A stretch of 64,000 nt of DNA from Escherichia phage AV108, in sequence record OR352938.1; one strand, given 5' to 3'. Shown here piece after piece: positions 2,298 through 63,258 of this stretch. The notes under the pieces are model-generated. The model was not told the DNA's origin. It did no database searches and saw only the letters and a list, made by a program, of their open reading frames with translations. Numbering within the stretch: the stretch's first letter is position 1; each line of letters opens with the position of its first letter. Both the position numbers and the translations under genes were made by a program.

Positions 2298-2337
2298 TGT
2301 TTGATTCTCCTAAGTGGTATCTCGTCTTGATGGTTGT

Positions 2338-2366
2338 ATTGTAGGGGAGTTATCCTCCCCTGTCAA
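2338..2366 (-). promoter_or_regulatory. sigma70-type early promoter
   Basis: tgtcaa at 2361-2366 (TTGACA), TACAAT-like -10, 17-nt palindromic spacer GGGGAGGATAACTCCCC. Confidence 0.5.
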
Positions 2367-2380
2367 CACTTTTTATAAAA

Positions 2381-5830: not shown

Positions 5831-5864
5831 TTTTGATTCTCCTATATCTCGTTGGTATGTGTGC

Positions 5865-5893
5865 ATTATAGGGGATCGGTGATCCCCTGTCAA
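5865..5893 (-). promoter_or_regulatory. sigma70-type early promoter
   Basis: attata 5865-5870, tgtcaa 5888-5893, spacer palindrome GGGGATCACCGATCCCC. Confidence 0.6.
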
Positions 5894-5898
5894 CAACT

Positions 5899-6192
5899 TT
5901 ATAATGCTTTATATGCGTATTTCATAAATTTGTCTGCCACTTCATTGGCATGTTCAGATTCTACGCCTGATTCGAGAACAATAGCTAGGTCGGTTTCGTC
6001 ATTCCCGCCGTACCAATGATTTGATGTTCGATTTTTTTCAATTGGAAATTGGTCACTTTTATCTGTGCGACAAAATACATCTAAATGCTCGTCGATGTAA
6101 AAGATCCAATCTTCATAAAGAATAACGGTATTAGCAAGATTTTTATTGCCTTCAACGAAAGGTTCGGCTACAAACAAATTAGTATGTTCCAT
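5899..6192 (-). CDS. small protein, divergent paralog family member F
   Basis: ORF track 5899..6249; likely start ATG 6190-6192 (MEHTNLF) with GAGGAA RBS; motif SNHW and AIVLESG. Confidence 0.45.
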   Translation of the reverse strand: MEHTNLFVAEPFVEGNKNLANTVILYEDWIFYIDEHLDVFCRTDKSDQFPIEKNRTSNHWYGGNDETDLAIVLESGVESEHANEVADKFMKYAYKAL

Positions 6193-6975: not shown

Positions 6976-7009
6976 AATTGATTCTCCTAGTTCGTTTCGG
7001 TATGTGTGT

Positions 7010-7038
7010 AGTATAGGGGATCACCGATCCCCTGTCAA
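7010..7038 (-). promoter_or_regulatory. sigma70-type early promoter
   Basis: tgtcaa 7033-7038, TATACT-like -10 7010-7015, spacer palindrome GGGGATCGGTGATCCCC. Confidence 0.55.
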
Positions 7039-7050
7039 CAACTTTTTGAA

Positions 7051-9016: not shown

Positions 9017-9482
9017 TTTCACCTCGTTTTGTTAAACGTTCACGAATATCATTGAGGATACTACAAAATTCCGATTCAGTCAATATAGTCTTTAACGGAT
9101 CAGTTCCACCTATGCTATGACGCAATTTCTTATTTCCGGTAGCGAGTAATGCTTTACAAAATTCTGGGTTATTCCGTGCCATCGTAACAAATGCCAGATG
9201 TACCAGTCTGTAATAATGCTCACTCATTCGATGAATAGGGCGACCCTGAAAATATAACATGTGATTCTCAATCTTTTCAGTTCTTCCGGTTCTTTTTGCT
9301 TTGCCACCGTGCATCAAAAAGATTTCTCTTTGTCTCTGAGGGTTCTTAAATCTTAGCCCCTGTAAAAATCCTTCTGTGCTGTTAATATCGCAACCAAATA
9401 GACGGAATGGTCTTTTATTGAAATTACTCAATTCACCCGATGGATAAGGTCCACCCGCATAGATATCAATTTCAGAAGTCAT
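9003..9482 (-). CDS. NADAR (YbiA/DUF1768-like) domain protein
   Basis: by-eye similarity to E. coli YbiA: SNFxxxPF, T.E...Q..KF, LLATG, GG.D...ILT...N.LG segments. Confidence 0.55.
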   Translation of the reverse strand: MTSEIDIYAGGPYPSGELSNFNKRPFRLFGCDINSTEGFLQGLRFKNPQRQREIFLMHGGKAKRTGRTEKIENHMLYFQGRPIHRMSEHYYRLVHLAFVTMARNNPEFCKALLATGNKKLRHSIGGTDPLKTILTESEFCSILNDIRERLTKRGENVNS

Positions 9483-9636
9483 TGAAACTAATCTCGCTAA
9501 TCAGAGAGAACGGATCATAATCGTCATTAGGAATATCGATAGTAATCGAATGAGGGTTTACCCATACACCAAACTGGTCTTCTTCGGTTAATACTTCGGT
9601 ATGGATTTCGTGGATGTTTACATTCATAGTTTTCAT
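9472..9636 (-). CDS. small protein (54 aa), below the ORF-track cutoff
   Basis: ATG 9634-9636 with AAGGAAA RBS; stop overlaps the NADAR start by 11 nt. Confidence 0.35.
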   Translation of the reverse strand: MKTMNVNIHEIHTEVLTEEDQFGVWVNPHSITIDIPNDDYDPFSLISEISFNDF

Positions 9637-10084: not shown

Positions 10085-10405
10085 TTATTTATAAATTTCG
10101 ACGATCTGCGCTGGAGTCAGCCCGTCCACATTAATCAGACTATCAAGCCCAAAACTACGGAAACCTTCAACTGCAATTTCATATACTGGCAAAGATGTTT
10201 CTGATTCTTTACGCGGTTTTTCAACATTCGGAACTAACCACTTTTCGTATGTTTCGAAAGGCATCAGTGCCGGATCTCGCGTGGCGATCATCTCGCGGAC
10301 AGTACCATCTTTCTTAGTAAACTGCAAAGAGTGAGTACCAACCGAAAACATTTTCTTTAGTGCTTCACGAAGTGCGATATTATCAATTTGTTCGGTCATT
10401 ATCAA
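10085..10405 (-). CDS. hypothetical protein
   Basis: 106-aa ORF between cd and 31. Confidence 0.45.
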   Translation of the reverse strand: MIMTEQIDNIALREALKKMFSVGTHSLQFTKKDGTVREMIATRDPALMPFETYEKWLVPNVEKPRKESETSLPVYEIAVEGFRSFGLDSLINVDGLTPAQIVEIYK

Positions 10406-17078: not shown

Positions 17079-17753
17079 TCACATATTCCTCATTTTACAG
17101 TTATCAAAGTGCCATCGTAGAGCATTGCCTTTATTGGTAATTTTACCGCAATGCGGACAAGGATCTGCCACTGTTGCTTCCTTTGTCCTTTGTGCAATCA
17201 GCTTTATCATTTCCTCGCTATGTGGTATTCCTTTAGTTGGCGATGGTTTCCCAAACATAGGATTTTTACTTCCCATTCTAGCTTTTGAAATGTTTAACGC
17301 GTGCTCCTTTGTTTTTGGCTTACGCATTTTAGCTTTTGTCTCTTCTGATTTCAACACACCTTTCGAAGATTCGCTAATCTTTCTTCGCGTTTCTTCTTTC
17401 ATCGGCTTGCCCTTTCTTTGTTCAGAGATAAGTACCCTAGCTTGTTCATATACCCTAGACGAAACAATATAATCTCTTTTATTGGTCTTCGCATTTTTTG
17501 CTAAACACATCATACCAAATGCTTGTGCCATAGGTCCACCATGAATTTTTGCTAGCAGATGATGAATCACGAAATGTTCTTTTGCTGTCAAATCAATCAG
17601 GTTATCAACTTCATCACCGCCACCCATAGATCTCGGTAAAATATGATGTGTTTCCTTATATCCTTCAACGGTTCCTCTTATCTTTGCTTTTTCTATGATT
17701 GCGTCATGTAATTTTTGTAAGTTCATGAATAAATCCTCGTTTCTGTATACCAT
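17079..17753 (-). CDS. mobE: HNH homing endonuclease (MobE-like by position)
   Basis: HNH core THHILPRSMGGGDEVDNLIDLTAKEH; C-terminal basic repeats and CPHCG zinc knuckle; inserted between nrdA and nrdB exactly where T4 carries mobE. Confidence 0.6.
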   Translation of the reverse strand: MVYRNEDLFMNLQKLHDAIIEKAKIRGTVEGYKETHHILPRSMGGGDEVDNLIDLTAKEHFVIHHLLAKIHGGPMAQAFGMMCLAKNAKTNKRDYIVSSRVYEQARVLISEQRKGKPMKEETRRKISESSKGVLKSEETKAKMRKPKTKEHALNISKARMGSKNPMFGKPSPTKGIPHSEEMIKLIAQRTKEATVADPCPHCGKITNKGNALRWHFDNCKMRNM

Positions 17754-17823
17754 TATTTATCAGGTATCCAGAAGAAGGATTAATTCACCTCACCATTATC
17801 CTACAACCTCAAAACATTTATCA

Positions 17824-40734: not shown

Positions 40735-41016
40735 TTATTTTCTGTTGTACTTCTGCCACTTTCTGTAATACTGCTTGTAAAATTGTTTAATGTTTGGTGG
40801 TTCGTCACTATACATGTTATCAACCATCATGTCAATAAGACCTTCCGGTGTTTGATAGTTACCCGCTCGAATGAGTTCCTTAATCAAAAGATCTTGTGCC
40901 GCTTTATACTTGACAATAACAACTGTCTTTTCTGCCTTTCCAATTCCGATCCGGTCGTTAGCTCTCATAGCATCCCACCAATCTTTTTTAAACTTCATGT
41001 TGTTAAATTTCATCAT
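40735..41016 (-). CDS. hypothetical protein
   Basis: 93-aa ORF abutting the stop of the upstream gene. Confidence 0.45.
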   Translation of the reverse strand: MMKFNNMKFKKDWWDAMRANDRIGIGKAEKTVVIVKYKAAQDLLIKELIRAGNYQTPEGLIDMMVDNMYSDEPPNIKQFYKQYYRKWQKYNRK

Positions 41017-41816: not shown

Positions 41817-41849
41817 AATATATTCCTCAATGTTTTTCTTGATGGGAGT

Positions 41850-41878
41850 ATCTTACTACTCCCTTAATCCGGTGTCAA
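41850..41878 (-). promoter_or_regulatory. sigma70-type early promoter (variant spacer)
   Basis: tgtcaa 41873-41878; -10 inside palindrome GGGAGTAGTAAGATACTCCC. Confidence 0.45.
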
Positions 41879-41885
41879 CTACTTT

Positions 41886-42098: not shown

Positions 42099-42126
42099 GT
42101 GATTCTCCTTTAGTTTGGTATGGGAG

Positions 42127-42155
42127 TATAATACTACTCCCATTTCTTTACGTCA
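42127..42155 (-). promoter_or_regulatory. sigma70-type early promoter
   Basis: cgtcaa 42150-42155, TATTAT -10 inside palindrome GGGAGTAGTATTATACTCCC. Confidence 0.45.
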
Positions 42156-42159
42156 ACAA

Positions 42160-42390
42160 CTATTTTAAATTATTTTCGACCTTCATCCATTCCGCGTATT
42201 CTTGCGCGGCTACTTTCGGATTTAGTCCGTCTTCGTACATTGCTTCAAGTAATTCTTCGTCGGTGGGCTTATATCCTAGATAAGCCTCCACCTGATTTTT
42301 CCAAATTTTATACCAGTTCATATTATCACCAATCAAGAGCGCGTGTCTCTGCGTCTTCCCATGCTTGATCCATAACAGCCTTGAAAACAT
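42160..42390 (-). CDS. hypothetical protein
   Basis: 76-aa ORF; real start may be the internal MNWYK at 42321. Confidence 0.35.
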   Translation of the reverse strand: MFSRLLWIKHGKTQRHALLIGDNMNWYKIWKNQVEAYLGYKPTDEELLEAMYEDGLNPKVAAQEYAEWMKVENNLK

Positions 42391-49740: not shown

Positions 49741-50040
49741 TTAATCTTTTTTCAGTGCATCCATTACTCGCTCTGCGATCAGTTCTCTTAAGCACTGATA
49801 ACCATGATATTTGATGGCAATGTCACGCAGATCATTAACCAGTTCCCGTACTTCATGGTCTTTCAGATCGTCTCTGTATTTCGATTTAATCGTATCTTTA
49901 GGTGGATTGCGGATAACCTGAAAACCTTGTTCTGCAATCACTGCGGCTTCGCGCTGGCGTTCATGTTGTACTGTATTTTTGATCAGGTCTGCTTCCATGA
50001 ACTTTGTCATACTCATCATCATGTTATTCTTTTTGCTCAT
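49741..50040 (-). CDS. hypothetical protein
   Basis: ORF track 49741..50121 overlaps the gene 39 stop; likely start ATG 50038-50040 (MSKKNN) with GAGGA RBS. Confidence 0.45.
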   Translation of the reverse strand: MSKKNNMMMSMTKFMEADLIKNTVQHERQREAAVIAEQGFQVIRNPPKDTIKSKYRDDLKDHEVRELVNDLRDIAIKYHGYQCLRELIAERVMDALKKD

Positions 50041-50105
50041 TATTAAATCCTCATAAAAGAAAAGGGAGACTCCCATTATAGAGAATCTCCCTTGTATGTC
50101 AAGTG

Positions 50106-51929
50106 TTATGATTGCATCCAAATTTTGCGTTGATCTGCATCTTCACTATAGAGCAAATCGAATAGCTCTTTATAGTTTTCCGGTAACGTGATGATCTCCA
50201 TTACAGGATCGTTGATCACGCGATGATAATCGGATTCTGTGAGCGATGCCAACCCTTTGATATATCGAATGTTATAACCTTTGATATTATCTCGGTCGTT
50301 CTCGAAATCTTCTAGGTCATAATACCATCGAACATCATCACCTTTCTTTGGTTCCGCAATGATAATAGGTGTTTTGATAAACCTGATTCGTCCATCTTCG
50401 AACAATTCAGGCCAACGTGCAAAGAAAGAGATCAGACTAGGTTTAATAGACCCGATCCCGTCAGTATCAGCGTCTGTCATAATCGCAATATTTTTGTATT
50501 GCATAACTTCCAATGCATCAACACCAAATTGCAAGCCAGTGATCGCCATGATGTTAAAAATTTCGGCGTTCTTAACGATCTTTGCCTCCGGTTGTTCCCA
50601 CGTTGTAAGAGTTTTGCCTCGCAACGGGAAACCGCCATGTAAATCTTGATCACGTACAGAGATCAGATAGTTGATTGCGGAATCACCTTCTGTCAAAAAC
50701 AGGGTAGTTTCTGCGTCAGTTCCAATAAGGTTAGCTTTAACGTGTTTTGCTACCTTAGCCCGTTTCGCTGCCTTCGCTGCCTTAGTCGCTGCCGCTTTAT
50801 CTGCTGCCTCTTTGCGTGCCAGGACTACAGCAATAATAGGCATAATAATGTTTTCTTTCTTCGCAATGACTTTAGCCAGCTTTTTAAAATCAAGATCAAT
50901 ATGACGCTTGATATCACCAGTTGGATTAGTCAAGCGTTCTTTTGTCTGTGAATCAAAACGGAGGTTAGGCAATTCACGAACAATCAAAATACAGGTCAAT
51001 CCAGACTTAACCGCAGCTTTAGTAACATCAACCTTATATTCTTTCTTGATTCGTTTTACAATCTCTTCACAAAGATCATCTGTCACGTAGTCTACGTGTG
51101 TTCCCCCGTTTTTGGTAAACAGACCATTAGCAAAGGATACTGATTTAAAACCTTCTCCCTCGACCGCCGGAACTAGAGCAAGTGAAAAGTTTTTATCTTC
51201 AATGACAAACGGATCATCATTGTATAGTTTAGCATAATCCTTGAACTTACTAACAATACGTTTACCATTAAACTTAAACGTGATCTTAGGAAAGATTACG
51301 CTCAATGATTGCAGACGATCATGAACAATATCTAAAACAGAGTTGTCCATCATATAACCTTCGAAGTGGTCGAAGTCTGGGCAAAATGTAACCTTTGTTC
51401 CCTTCAATTTTGATGGTTTTGACGACCATGTGATATTTTCAGCGCCGTTTGTGCACTGTACGGTCATTTCTGTTTCGCCGTCACATGTTACACCAGTAAA
51501 CCAATCGCTAAAGAAATTTGACAACGACGACCCCACACCGTTCATCCCTTGCGTTAATCGATTGGTATCATCAAAGTTAGACCCTGCTTTTGTTCGTGTC
51601 CATGCGGCTACAGGTTGCGGAATCTGCGTACCCTCTGGGGTAGTAACCATATGTTGAGGAATACCGCGACCATTGTCTGTTACCGTAACAATATTGTTTT
51701 GGATATCGACGCTAATCACATTGGCAAATTCAAAGTTAGTGCGGATCGCCTCGTCTACAGAGTTGTCGATGATCTCATCAATGATTTTAACCAGTCCAGG
51801 AACATATGAAATTTTTGTCCACTTACCGAACAGGAAACGTTGATGTTCTTCGTAAGTTGTTGATCCTATGTACATTCCTGCACGCTTAAGGACATGTTCA
51901 CGATCAGATAAAATGCGAAACTCACTCAT
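50106..51929 (-). CDS. 39: topoisomerase II large subunit (GyrB-like ATPase), fused 39+60 form
   Basis: N-terminus MSEFRILSDREHVLKRAGMYIGS matches T4 gp39 as recalled; 607 aa single frame covers what T4 splits into genes 39 and 60. Confidence 0.9.
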   Translation of the reverse strand: MSEFRILSDREHVLKRAGMYIGSTTYEEHQRFLFGKWTKISYVPGLVKIIDEIIDNSVDEAIRTNFEFANVISVDIQNNIVTVTDNGRGIPQHMVTTPEGTQIPQPVAAWTRTKAGSNFDDTNRLTQGMNGVGSSLSNFFSDWFTGVTCDGETEMTVQCTNGAENITWSSKPSKLKGTKVTFCPDFDHFEGYMMDNSVLDIVHDRLQSLSVIFPKITFKFNGKRIVSKFKDYAKLYNDDPFVIEDKNFSLALVPAVEGEGFKSVSFANGLFTKNGGTHVDYVTDDLCEEIVKRIKKEYKVDVTKAAVKSGLTCILIVRELPNLRFDSQTKERLTNPTGDIKRHIDLDFKKLAKVIAKKENIIMPIIAVVLARKEAADKAAATKAAKAAKRAKVAKHVKANLIGTDAETTLFLTEGDSAINYLISVRDQDLHGGFPLRGKTLTTWEQPEAKIVKNAEIFNIMAITGLQFGVDALEVMQYKNIAIMTDADTDGIGSIKPSLISFFARWPELFEDGRIRFIKTPIIIAEPKKGDDVRWYYDLEDFENDRDNIKGYNIRYIKGLASLTESDYHRVINDPVMEIITLPENYKELFDLLYSEDADQRKIWMQS

Positions 51930-55805: not shown

Positions 55806-56309
55806 TTAAATTAAAGAAAATTTGTAAATCTCTATCAGATCGCCGTTACACGCGTAAACTTCCTCGATCTCATCAAGGATCATGGTCGTCCCTGTCTTGT
55901 ATATGCACTCGCGCTCATCTGCCAACATAGCATACAAAGACAGTCGAGTAGTCGGATTGTCATACTCTTTAGACACCACTCGGTCAATAGCATGTTCGTA
56001 ATAATTCATGCAAGGCTTGGTAGGTTTTATTGCAATAATCTTTCCTGTTGCATAAACATCGGTTGCAAAGTCCTCTGCTGTTGATTGCAGTGGCGTAAAG
56101 CTCATAGGACGCTCTACAACGAAAGAATCACCTACAATTAAGGTATCCAGCTTACGACCTTCTCTTTTGCTCACACCGCGATACAAGGCTTCATGATGCA
56201 CTAACCGTTCAGTCTTTTCGATCAATCCATTAAGGATCGACATATCGATATTTTCTTTAGAGTTCATCACTTCATCAATGATGTTAAGTTCTTCTGGTGT
56301 AAATTGCAT
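55806..56309 (-). CDS. ADP-ribosyltransferase-like protein (ModA/ModB-like R-S-ExE pattern)
   Basis: YRG ... STAED ... DERE spacing fits arginine-specific ADP-ribosyltransferases; position between dda and 56 as for T4 modA/modB. Confidence 0.4.
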   Translation of the reverse strand: MQFTPEELNIIDEVMNSKENIDMSILNGLIEKTERLVHHEALYRGVSKREGRKLDTLIVGDSFVVERPMSFTPLQSTAEDFATDVYATGKIIAIKPTKPCMNYYEHAIDRVVSKEYDNPTTRLSLYAMLADERECIYKTGTTMILDEIEEVYACNGDLIEIYKFSLI

Positions 56310-56316
56310 AATAAAA

Positions 56317-56342
56317 AAGCCTCCAATCTTTCGACAGGAGGC
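56317..56342 (-). promoter_or_regulatory. 5' leader hairpin enclosing the RBS of the ADP-ribosyltransferase-like gene
   Basis: GCCUCC-N12-GGAGGC in mRNA sense; the GGAGG RBS is the 3' arm, followed by UUUUUUAUU-AUG. Confidence 0.4.
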
Positions 56343-56371
56343 ATAATAAAACCATTATAGAGTAGTGTCAA
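56343..56371 (-). promoter_or_regulatory. sigma70-type early promoter
   Basis: tgtcaa 56366-56371, TATTAT -10 at 56343-56348. Confidence 0.45.
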
Positions 56372-56378
56372 CTAATTT

Positions 56379-56897
56379 TTAGTAGCCGCGTTCTTGACGG
56401 GCGAAGTTTTCAGCATTTTTCAGATAGTACAGCTTGAAGATATCCTTAGCGGTTAAACCTAAGCCCAGCATTTTAATCAGCACAAAATGCCAGATATCGA
56501 TCAATTCCATCACAATTTCGGTTTTATCGTCATCTGACAGATCAGCAAATTTACGCGCTCGTGCTTCGCCGTGGTTCTTCTTCCACACTTTAGTAATTGC
56601 GCTTGCATCTTTGCCATTTGACATGCCACCCAGGGCAACATAAAGTTCTCGTGTCTCGTCGTCGATTGCGTCATCCCACAACTTCATCCAGTCAAGGATC
56701 TCCCCGCAAGTTTCCAGCTTATCAGGATGCATTACCCACTCAAATTTATCAGCTAGTGCGACCTGTAATCCTTTTTGCATATCTAACATTACTTGCAGCG
56801 GATCTTTACCGCTAGTGATTGCCTCGGAATACGCAATACCAGCTTTAGACATAGTTTCATCATTAACAAGACCAGCACAAGAATTAAATTCACTCAT
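56379..56897 (-). CDS. 56: dCTP pyrophosphatase-like all-alpha NTP pyrophosphohydrolase
   Basis: MazG-like ELIDIWHFVL helix, about 172 aa from ATG 56895-56897 with GAGAGG RBS; position next to 61 as T4 gene 56; ORF track to 56960. Confidence 0.6.
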   Translation of the reverse strand: MSEFNSCAGLVNDETMSKAGIAYSEAITSGKDPLQVMLDMQKGLQVALADKFEWVMHPDKLETCGEILDWMKLWDDAIDDETRELYVALGGMSNGKDASAITKVWKKNHGEARARKFADLSDDDKTEIVMELIDIWHFVLIKMLGLGLTAKDIFKLYYLKNAENFARQERGY

Positions 56898-56907
56898 AAT
56901 AAACCTC

Positions 56908-57471
56908 TCAAATAACATTAAACACTGCAAATTCACCGTGATACTTATACGCATAGTCATTATATACTATTGCGGCGTCTATTTCTAGGTCAAATTGTCC
57001 TATATAGACTTTATTTCCTTCATTGTCCCTTATCTGGGCGACCCATTTACCCGAACGACTATTATAATGCACTCCTTTAAAATTGCTAGTTTTAGTTTGG
57101 TTGTTTCTTCTCATATTTTGGGTATTCTGTTTTTGTGTCGCCTCTCTTAAGTTTGGAGGATCGTTGTTCTCTGGATTCCCGTCAATATGGTCAATGACAG
57201 GTGGGCAATACCCATGCTCTAAGAAGAATACTATTCTATGCACAAGCTCAAAATATTGTTTTCCTTCAAAAGAAAATGAGACTTTTAGGTGTCCGGCTGT
57301 GACTTTAGATACCTTTACTATATCACCAACCTTATAAAACTGGCCTTCTTTCGTCGTTCGGCTTGCTTTGCTGTTTGTTTTATGAATCAATATACCCCTT
57401 TCGTGTCTATATCTTCGACGTATTTCATCCTTTAATTCATCGCTCCATTCTTTGGCTTTCCTTACCCTCAC
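56908..57471 (-). CDS. HNH endonuclease with AP2 DNA-binding domain
   Basis: HNH core VHRIVFFLEHGYCPPVIDHIDGNPENN ... NLREATQKQN; AP2-like FKGVHYNSRSGKWVAQI ... YIGQFD ... AAIVYNDYA. Confidence 0.65.
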   Translation of the reverse strand: MRVRKAKEWSDELKDEIRRRYRHERGILIHKTNSKASRTTKEGQFYKVGDIVKVSKVTAGHLKVSFSFEGKQYFELVHRIVFFLEHGYCPPVIDHIDGNPENNDPPNLREATQKQNTQNMRRNNQTKTSNFKGVHYNSRSGKWVAQIRDNEGNKVYIGQFDLEIDAAIVYNDYAYKYHGEFAVFNVI

Positions 57472-57488
57472 AATACAACCCTCATTAA

Positions 57489-58517
57489 TTAAAATTTACA
57501 ATATTTCATAAACCGCATTTTAGCCATCAGACCTTGTACGGTGTTCTCTTTGATATATTCCATGATCTGGTCGCGTGTAGCGCCCTCGTCCTGAATCATG
57601 GCGTTAACGTCTTTAGAATGCCACGGGCAACGATCCCACAATACAATCTTTTCCCCTGCATTGATAAACTTTTCCAGTCGGTGCATTGTATCGGCAGACC
57701 GTGGTTCCGCATCAAGTACAAACACTCGCTGGTCTGGGAAAGGGATTTCATCTAATCCCAAAGTACCGCCAGTAATTGCACACCCGTTATCAATAAACAA
57801 TGAATCGATCGGACCTTCTAAGAAATACACTGGTTTACTCGGATCGGCGCGTTCAAGACCATAGACCTTACTCGCTAACTCGTGAGTTTTAATCGTCATA
57901 TATTTGGTCTTTCCGTAATCCTTTCTCAATGCTCGCCCCTGAATGGATTCTATCTTGTTCTCGCGGTTAAAGATAGGAATCACTAAACGCGGTTCAGGTT
58001 GTGGATTCTTGAAAGTATCCGCCTTAATGTGATTTGCTACCTTTTGCCATTCTCTCGTGAAATACAGAAGATCCCATTTATCGTGAGGAATACAGCGATC
58101 ACTGACATACTTTATTATAGGATGATTAGCCGGAAGAGTATCTAATCTCTCGCAGAAAGGCAATGTTTGCACTTTCTTAATCTCCGGCTTTTCTACCTTT
58201 TTCAGTGGCTTGAACGTGGTGTTCTTGTGGTCGCCTTGTTCCTTCCGTCGTTCCATAAGCCATTCCCTGAATAGGTCCGGCTTATACTGTTTGAGAAATT
58301 CACCTAACGGCTGATTGTAGTTACAGTTGAAACAGCCGCAACGCAAACTATCCTTATAGGTATAGATACGGAATCGCGCCATTGTGCTATTCTTTTTGGA
58401 ATCTCCGCAGATCGGACAACTTGCTACTAACGTAAATGAGTTAGTATGTAACCGCTTGAAATTTCGTTCGCCGTATATGGCTTTTTCCGCTATTTCATAA
58501 TCTGCGTAGTAAATCAT
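57489..58517 (-). CDS. 61: DNA primase
   Basis: 342 aa as T4 gp61; zinc ribbon CPICGDS ... CGCFNCNY and TOPRIM-like region. Confidence 0.85.
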   Translation of the reverse strand: MIYYADYEIAEKAIYGERNFKRLHTNSFTLVASCPICGDSKKNSTMARFRIYTYKDSLRCGCFNCNYNQPLGEFLKQYKPDLFREWLMERRKEQGDHKNTTFKPLKKVEKPEIKKVQTLPFCERLDTLPANHPIIKYVSDRCIPHDKWDLLYFTREWQKVANHIKADTFKNPQPEPRLVIPIFNRENKIESIQGRALRKDYGKTKYMTIKTHELASKVYGLERADPSKPVYFLEGPIDSLFIDNGCAITGGTLGLDEIPFPDQRVFVLDAEPRSADTMHRLEKFINAGEKIVLWDRCPWHSKDVNAMIQDEGATRDQIMEYIKENTVQGLMAKMRFMKYCKF

Positions 58518-63008: not shown

Positions 63009-63236
63009 CTATTCAGTTAATCCGTAATACTTTAATTGCTTCATTGTTATTCGATCTTTGTAGTGCTCTTGAATTAACTTTTTCATCGCATCAACATCGA
63101 TCGTCACAAATACTTCGTTGCTGTGATTTCCGTGAACTTTCTTGAAATGCTCTATGCCTTCCTCACGTTCACGTTTAATCTTTTCAATGTCTCTCATAGT
63201 ATATTTCTCACGTTGGCGGGTATCGTCACCCAACAC
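63009..63236 (-). CDS. hypothetical protein
   Basis: 75-aa ORF, the only gene between 43 and uvsX; hairpin GGCGGGT-N13-ACCCGCC at 63215-63241. Confidence 0.4.
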   Translation of the reverse strand: MLGDDTRQREKYTMRDIEKIKREREEGIEHFKKVHGNHSNEVFVTIDVDAMKKLIQEHYKDRITMKQLKYYGLTE

Positions 63237-63258
63237 CCGCCATTATACACACTTTATC

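Follow-up and report, generated by a model that had tools for sequence, protein, structure and literature searches.

In the T4 genes e (lysozyme), soc, 49 and I-TevI, the translation initiation region (TIR) is sequestered in read-through RNA and is freed by an internal late promoter located in the 5' strand of the masking helix (PMC3014915). The Shine-Dalgarno (SD) sequence of these genes lies in the 3' strand of the helix; the longer transcripts are silent, a transcript without the 5' strand is translatable, and the internal promoters are late (gp55, TATAAATA), with the gate delaying expression. A related arrangement built on an early promoter is described here for the leader of a modB-type ADP-ribosyltransferase gene. 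T4 makes ModB as an early protein (PMC9697503); the enzyme links RNA chains to proteins of the host (PMC10468400) and is toxic or lethal when over-expressed (PMC3014915).

The promoter-early stem-loop (PeSL) cassettes, another closely related system, were described in the same phage group as the element analysed here (Arbiol et al. 2010, PMC2839356; Comeau et al. 2014, PMC4122927). RB49 and phi1 carry about 50 of these cassettes each, which combine a near-consensus early promoter with a stem-loop, end in an SD and an ATG and fall into five subclasses by the position of the stem, one of them being 'downstream of the -10' (PMC2839356). The stem-loop has been proposed to halt upstream transcription; that of PeSL 211/210 matched rrnB T1 as a terminator in a reporter, another cassette gave strong lacZ expression, and PeSLs are known to recombine and to form mini-circles (PMC2839356). 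Translation is never discussed in the two PeSL papers (0 occurrences in PMC2839356 and PMC4122927). For the corresponding locus of RB49, Nolan et al. 2006 listed a TransTerm terminator at 9430-9453 with a confidence of 100, designated 'modB<--56' and overlapping the early promoter Pe:9496. Promoter-coupled terminators of bacteria (Fletcher et al. 2026 preprint, 10.64898/2026.08.19.745784) likewise pack a terminator and the next promoter into a few dozen shared bp, where the two can affect each other. Termination in these occurs about 10 bp upstream of the start, their stem supplying the -35 and their T-tract the spacer, unlike the modB element, in which the predicted start lies inside the terminator hairpin and termination is expected about 20-25 nt downstream of the start.

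The window considered in the present analysis is the whole stretch of 64,000 nucleotides from Escherichia phage AV108 (OR352938.1). The region is 88-99.5% identical to Krischvirus genomes (RB49, phi1, GEC-3S and the TB34 relatives), and the genes on its minus strand are arranged in the order 61, an HNH/AP2 gene, 56, the intergenic element, the modB-type gene, srd, a Y01A-family gene and dda. The primase gene 61 occupies 57489-58517 (minus strand). Gene 56, a dCTPase/dUTPase ORF at 56379-56897 on the same strand (Pfam dUTPase_2, 1.5e-5), is labelled dCTPase in the annotations of TB34, Makalu_003, GEC-3S and phi1 and forms the upstream transcription unit whose transcripts would reach the hairpin. 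The modB-type gene (55806-56309, minus strand; ATG at 56309-56307) encodes a ModA/ModB-type protein of 167 amino acids that matches PHROG 832, 'RNA polymerase ADP-ribosylase' (1e-20), shares 33% identity with T4 ModB, the YRG and SFT motifs being aligned, and carries ERE at residues 132-134 of its translation (R-S-ExE-type catalytic motifs). A Pfam-A search with the protein itself returned no match, and PF26816 (Mod_ADP_RT) was found on its homologues. The label 'ADP-ribosyltransferase-like', under which the first-pass annotation had listed the gene, is justified. The adjacency of 56 and modB is unlike the gene order of T4, and the junction is specific to Krischvirus; modB itself is a conserved gene.

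The HNH and AP2 homing-endonuclease gene situated between 61 and 56 (187 amino acids; 56908-57471, minus strand; Pfam HNH_3 9e-14, AP2 7e-7) is confined to the closest relatives TB34, SAP, G2494, ELT3, phiS and KFS-EC. It is missing from RB49, phi1, GEC-3S and others, whose matches begin at query base 110.

The minus strand of 56307-56381 reads TAA-aaaattag-TTGACA-N17-TATTAT-GCCTCC-t-GTC-GAAA-GAT-t-GGAGGC-TTTTTTATT-ATG, beginning with the stop codon of gene 56 (56381-56379). Directly 5' of the -35 lies the A/T-rich stretch AAAAATTAG (56372-56380; 8 of 9 positions A/T), shorter than in the classical PeSL copies of the window. The -35 hexamer TTGACA (56366-56371) is invariant across the orthologous loci and is followed after 17 nt by the -10 hexamer TATTAT (56343-56348), with the variants TATGAT and TATTGT in the orthologous loci L011 and L005, respectively. 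The earlier placement of a promoter at 56343-56371 is therefore borne out: TTGACA-17-TATTAT matches at 11 of 12 positions and is the top promoter-like match of an 8-kb scan. An alternative promoter based on the perfect TATAAT at 56354-56359 was rejected, as this hexamer is only 6 nt from TTGACA, has no suitably spaced -35 and is lost in L011.

The 5' arm GCCUCC (56337-56342), which is anti-SD-like, occupies promoter positions -6 to -1. It is followed by an inner hairpin (56325-56336) predicted by folding, consisting of a U.U mismatch, a 3-bp stem GUC/GAU with a G.U pair and a GAAA tetraloop, and then by the 3' arm GGAGGC (56319-56324), which contains the SD GGAGG (56320-56324). The U-tract UUUUUUAUU (56310-56318) serves both as the terminator tail and as the SD-AUG spacer of 10 nt. 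The leader noted earlier, GCCUCC-N12-GGAGGC-UUUUUUAUU-AUG, is reproduced exactly on the minus strand. A search of Rfam gave nothing but a chance snoRNA match (E = 0.76).

By sigma-70 spacing, transcription is predicted to start at T56336 (7 nt after the -10) or G56335 (8 nt), that is 1-2 nt beyond the last base of the 5' arm, and a pyrimidine-purine step is found 7-8 nt past the -10 in every sequence variant. The RB49 early-promoter model Pe:9496 gives the same position by its numbering, 9446-9496 corresponding to 56335-56385 of the window (RB49 coordinate = window - 46889). The first-pass annotation had placed the start inside the 5' arm. The position is thus shifted just past the arm, and the consequence drawn for freeing the RBS is unchanged, because the 5' arm would still be absent from the own-promoter transcript.

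At -15.1 kcal/mol, the fold of the 33-nt hairpin segment is more stable than those of its dinucleotide shuffles (-5.0 +/- 2.0 kcal/mol; z = -4.99; equalled by 0 of 200), in agreement with the earlier statement that the SD GGAGG forms the 3' arm of a stable stem. The pattern GCCTCC-N(4-20)-GGAGGC occurs once in the window as compared to 0.00 times in 100 shuffles. Folding of both transcript forms further upholds, in silico, the proposal that the read-through hairpin masks the RBS and that the own transcript frees the SD. The pairing probability of the SD in read-through RNA is 1.00; the AUG is unpaired in the Krischvirus read-through fold, the stem covering the SD alone. RNA from 56335 has weak alternative pairings and is less structured than shuffles, and its MFE of -2.3 kcal/mol compares with about -16 kcal/mol for the read-through form, a contrast seen in all five sequence variants.

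The opening energy of the modB-type gene is 10.4 kcal/mol (median 4.8; rank 6 of 102 in the window), and the difference between read-through and own-promoter RNA, 7.5 kcal/mol, is the largest among the 18 promoter-proximal genes of the window. Of the promoter-proximal genes looked at, in the window as well as in 50 kb of phi1, only the modB-type gene uses its SD as the 3' arm of a stem. A second candidate of this kind at 49741-50076 was discarded, its start codon having been mis-called; the true ATG at 50040 has its own SD and belongs to a PeSL of the classical kind, whose loop holds the -10.

A GC-rich stem followed by a U-tract is the textbook form of an intrinsic terminator. The modB-leader stem, with six GC-rich pairs and a 3-bp inner stem followed by U6AUU, has this canonical layout; termination ahead of the AUG is thus expected for most gene-56 transcripts, with only residual read-through left for masking to act on. 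If termination is efficient, masking would have little to add. The annotations of related genomes point the same way, the U-tract UUUUUUAUU falling within the terminator features annotated at the modB leader of Makalu_003 and TB34, and the promoter being annotated in GEC-3S with TTGACA as a minus_35_signal. An opposite-strand terminator in TB34 was dismissed as an artefact of strand assignment, as there is no convergent plus-strand gene and the plus-strand tail is not U-rich. A simple terminator scan with a loop limit of 3-8 nt passed over the modB-leader hairpin.

The element resembles the PeSLs in bringing together, in one short intergenic region, a near-consensus counterpart of TTGACA-N17-TATAAT, an A/T-rich upstream region, a stable stem-loop and an SD with ATG. 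The stem begins at the first base after the -10, as in the subclass 'downstream of the -10'. Typical PeSL stems have the form G(n)-loop-C(n) and are placed between or over the hexamers with the SD outside, whereas the modB stem is reversed, with a C-rich 5' arm and a G-rich 3' arm, and holds the SD inside. The element thus fits the PeSL class as an atypical member. There is no second copy of its stem sequence in the window.

Classical PeSLs with G-rich/C-rich stems are also found on the minus strand of the window (2298-2370, 2549-2620, 5831-5900, 6976-7050, 41817-41885, 42099-42160 and 50041-50110). The stem lies between the hexamers at -35 and -10 upstream of the genes at 2046, 2381, 5663 and 6796, and over the -10, with the -10 in the loop, upstream of those at 41016 and 41886 and the gene starting at 50040. 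A leader type ACACACATACC...TAGGAGAATCAA lies 3' of the classical PeSLs, several being near-identical and placed ahead of small ORFs without assigned function. At 63198-63250 (minus strand), ahead of the ORF 63009-63197, the promoter TTGACA-16-TATAAT (12 of 12) is directly followed by a 12-bp GC-rich hairpin GGCGGGUGUUGG...ACCCGCC, which the predicted start would also split and which does not have the SD in its 3' arm.

Conservation was examined among the Krischvirus genomes, in which the modB-leader region is nearly invariant, and in diverged loci retrieved by protein and pattern scans of IMG/VR, a metagenome scan and a protein search. Three of these loci were informative, namely L006, L012 and L011, with ModB protein identities of 75%, 74% and 63%, respectively; the other matches of the pattern scan were unrelated GC-rich sequences and were set aside. 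All three retain TTGACA with a -10 spaced at 17 nt, and have kept the stem, a GNRA loop and the U-tract as well. The tetraloop is GAAA or GAGA in all variants (both GNRA), and the U-tract of every orthologue consists of T5-T7 followed by (A/G)TT.

In L011, GCCUCC/GGAGGC is replaced by GCCCCC/GGGGGC, a compensatory change from U-A to C-G that keeps the helix and weakens the SD to GGGGG. The TATAAT of the spacer is gone in this locus and the -10 spaced at 17 nt is retained. Covariation within the genus-level group amounts to this one compensatory pair. The bases flanking the inner stem (56325/56336) vary together among the relatives, being U.U, C.U or C.C in most sequences and A-U only in L012 and L011; this symmetric mismatch sits at the predicted transcription start. 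Of the two strands, the gene-sense one folds better owing to its G.U pair and asymmetric mismatches, which points to a structure acting at the RNA level. The changes in the orthologues argue for a functional helix in the sense-strand RNA, and on their own would fit termination and masking alike.

Leaders of modB were also compared across other T4-like phages by per-sequence folding, an AUG-anchored table of pairs and an alignment-free swap of 5' and 3' halves. The modB gene of T4 has the same architecture without sequence similarity: its promoter reads G-TTTACT-N17-TATGAT, the -10 and the bases following it form the 5' arm, and the 3' arm is CGGAGGCUAUCAUG. The hairpin core folds at -15.7 kcal/mol (z = -4.4), and the predicted own-promoter RNA is unstructured (-1.2 kcal/mol). 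Promoter-embedded modB hairpins are found as well in JS98, MX01 (Dhakavirus), S16 (Gelderlandvirus), myPSH1140 (Karamvirus), MY02, pzk-kv8 (Marfavirus), X20 (Winklervirus), PEi26 (Kanagawavirus), RB69 (Mosigvirus), SP18 (Gaprivervirus) and phiE142 (Carettavirus). In T4 and these phages, representing ten genera, the modB promoter is GTTTAC(A/T)-N16/17-TAnnAT with the -10 and the discriminator as the 5' arm, and the hairpins (-18 to -26 kcal/mol) cover both the SD and the AUG and have no U-tract.

The arms of these hairpins covary between genera, the 5' and 3' arms being TAGCTTC and GGAGGCTA in T4, TGACCTC and GGAGGTCA in JS98, GTATCTC and GGAGATAC in MY02, and TAGTCTTC and GGAGACTA in X20. Positions -11 to -1 from the AUG are all paired in nearly all of the 11 sequences, with 2-5 pair types each. 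When the 5' half of each leader was joined to the 3' halves of other phages, the chimeras folded at a mean of -11.8 kcal/mol (sd 4.6) as compared to -20.5 kcal/mol for the native leaders; the 7% of chimeras that were as stable as native came mostly from within the close group of T4, S16 and myPSH1140. A consensus from RNAalifold on a MAFFT alignment of the leaders was abandoned as meaningless, the arms being out of register.

On the scale of opening energy (-15 to +3, read-through RNA), T4 modB, at 16.5 kcal/mol, ranks first of the 84 genes in the first 50 kb, where gene 49 has 15.6, I-TevII 13.0 and soc 7.7 kcal/mol against a median of 4.9 kcal/mol; from its own promoter the opening cost of modB is 2.6 kcal/mol. 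No such helix is seen at modA genes with a promoter of their own (RB69, JS98 and MX01). The hairpins of the ten genera and the contrast with modA thus make the promoter-embedded mask a specific and conserved property of modB leaders. T4 motB.2 (MT984581.1; start 8147, minus strand) has a second promoter-embedded mask, with the promoter GTTTACT-N17-TACTAT, in which the spacer is the 5' arm, the loop contains the -10 and the SD GAGGA lies at the end of the 3' arm; its opening energy is 16.4 kcal/mol in read-through RNA as compared to 4.2 kcal/mol from its own promoter.

The Tevenvirinae modB leaders share with that of Krischvirus an early promoter that directly adjoins or overlaps the 5' arm, GGAG(G) in the 3' arm and a predicted start by which the 5' arm would be lost. 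They differ in that their stems are longer (10-19 bp) and include the -10 and the AUG, and in that the upstream gene is modA.2 and not 56. As these stems have no U-tract, they would be pure masks and not terminators. The Krischvirus element, as judged from this comparison, appears to be a shortened modB mask with an added U-tract; the likeness between the Tevenvirinae and Krischvirus hairpins could also have arisen by convergence, since any such arm has to complement GGAGG. The T4 reviews and the ModB literature searched make no mention of a modB hairpin; the older T4 mapping literature may contain one.

Taken with the observed anatomy, folding energies, conservation and covariation, the most favoured reading, to which a probability of roughly two in three is assigned, is that of an interleaved terminator and early promoter, by which upstream RNAs would be terminated, read-through RNA would be masked and ModB would be made only from its own promoter. 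A polymerase arriving from gene 56 would transcribe the whole GCCUCC...GGAGGC hairpin and U6AUU, and most gene-56 transcripts would terminate in the U-tract, 1-9 nt before the AUG. The residual read-through RNA would have its SD locked in a stem of -14 to -15 kcal/mol and would be translated poorly. Initiation at TTGACA-17-TATTAT would begin 7-8 nt past the -10, just 3' of the 5' arm, and the resulting transcript, lacking that arm, would form neither the terminator nor the mask and would expose a free GGAGG. With own-promoter RNA free and upstream RNA terminated or masked, ModB would therefore come only from its own early promoter. Where transcription starts, how efficiently it terminates and how strongly translation is affected enter this scheme as estimates from the sequence; no transcriptome paper for Krischvirus was found in the literature searched, and the modB start is a prediction.

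The main alternative, conceivable if unlikely, is that the element is a PeSL terminator/promoter cassette and nothing more, in which the hairpin stops gene-56 transcription and protects the 3' end of the mRNA, the overlap with the SD being due to compaction and the masking not being under selection. The U-tract present in every orthologue, the long SD-AUG spacing of 10 nt, as if set by the tail, and the compensatory change in L011, which gives up SD quality for the stem, are all in keeping with such a cassette, as are the existing prediction of the RB49 hairpin as a terminator and the many other PeSLs of the window whose stem-loops are clear of the SD. However, the polarity of the modB stem is opposite to the G(n)-loop-C(n) usual in RB49 and phi1, the use of the SD as the 3' arm is unique among the promoter-proximal genes examined, and TIR-masking hairpins free of a U-tract occupy the same promoter-relative place before modB in ten other genera, which speaks against such a cassette alone.

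A role of the palindrome in the DNA itself, as a recombination hot spot for the shuffling of PeSL modules or as a site for a dimeric protein with the RNA structure incidental, is highly improbable. PeSL recombination and mini-circles have been demonstrated (PMC2839356), the 56-modB junction is peculiar to Krischvirus, and a homing-endonuclease gene has been inserted just upstream in the closest relatives only; yet the sense-strand RNA is favoured by its G.U pair and asymmetric mismatches, a GNRA loop persists as GAAA or GAGA, the compensatory change keeps the pairing and not the sequence, and the window offers no other copy of the stem as a recombination partner. Very little weight can likewise be given to a promoter that is unused or starts upstream of the stem, in which case modB would be expressed only by read-through of the terminator and the hairpin would act as an attenuator of a 56-modB operon. 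The score of the RB49 early-promoter HMM is modest here (11.3 as compared to 28.9 for the neighbouring srd promoter), but the hexamers match at 11 of 12 positions with the ideal spacing of 17 nt and are conserved where the spacer is not, and the pyrimidine-purine step recurs 7-8 nt after the -10 in every variant. With its mRNA both terminated and masked, moreover, an early enzyme would be left without a productive message. The DNA-level role and the inactive promoter are accordingly considered less likely than the interleaved terminator and early promoter.

The likeness to the T4 lysozyme gene put forward in the first-pass annotation holds for the geometry of the gate, with the SD in the 3' strand of the helix and a transcript without the 5' strand predicted to be translatable, and does not extend to the promoter, which is early sigma-70 and not late. 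The modB element further differs from the gates of e, soc, 49 and I-TevI in having a U-tract with expected termination and in pairing the SD but not the AUG. No TATAAATA late promoter is present on the minus strand between 56310 and 64000, and a late promoter inside or upstream of the hairpin was ruled out, there being no TATAAATA on the minus strand downstream of position 10093. With an early promoter and no late promoter upstream, the temporal logic would therefore be 'early only' and not 'late only'. The benefit of a 'promoter choice' is not obvious, since the upstream and the internal promoters are both of the early sigma-70 type. The earlier suggestion that translation is coupled to the choice of promoter is partly supported, by the masking logic in silico, the compensatory change in the orthologue and the modB hairpins of ten other genera; it was incomplete in overlooking the intrinsic terminator, the membership in the PeSL class and the early type of the promoter.

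Two other leaders in these phages have folds reminiscent of T4 masks. The leader (17727-17790, minus strand) of a seg-like homing-endonuclease gene (ORF 17079-17726; PHROG 655, 9e-56) holds its SD GAGGA in a long hairpin, has the second highest opening energy in the window (15.2 kcal/mol) and a loop, GATAAATAAT, resembling the late promoter TATAAATA; it looks like the RBS sequestration of homing endonucleases of the I-TevI / mobE type. Gene 49 of phi1 (endonuclease VII; NC_009821.1, start 39229, minus strand) shows an ACCUUC-UUU-GGAGGGU pairing over the SD (probability of being paired 0.80), which suggests that the RBS mask of T4 gene 49 has been retained in the RB49 group.

For the window itself the message is a modest one, a regulatory cassette having been correctly spotted that was partly annotated before. 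The terminator and PeSL annotation at the locus was known; the early-promoter version of the gate and its conservation before modB across the T4-like phages are new. The gate is not a new principle and represents instead a coherent and testable regulatory design on an enzyme of current interest. The 60-bp Krischvirus combination of terminator, promoter and RBS mask is in addition a natural insulator part for phage and synthetic-biology designs.

Across the T4-like phages, there is an even chance that modB is placed under a conserved 'early-only' gate, in which the -10 and the discriminator double as the anti-TIR strand and later, longer transcripts are silent, the RB49 lineage having fused a terminator to it in a 33-nt element. 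If true, such a gate would be the temporal mirror image of those of lysozyme, soc and I-TevI, and would widen a classic regulatory principle of T4 from late to early promoters. With its conservation in eleven genera and its covarying arms, the idea lends itself to a direct test in T4, a phage with easy genetics. No description of limits on the dose or timing of ModB was found in the literature searched; ModB being early and lethal when over-expressed, there is a plausible reason for its insulation, and a cis gate that makes translation depend on a single promoter would account for a brief, self-limiting burst of ModB synthesis.
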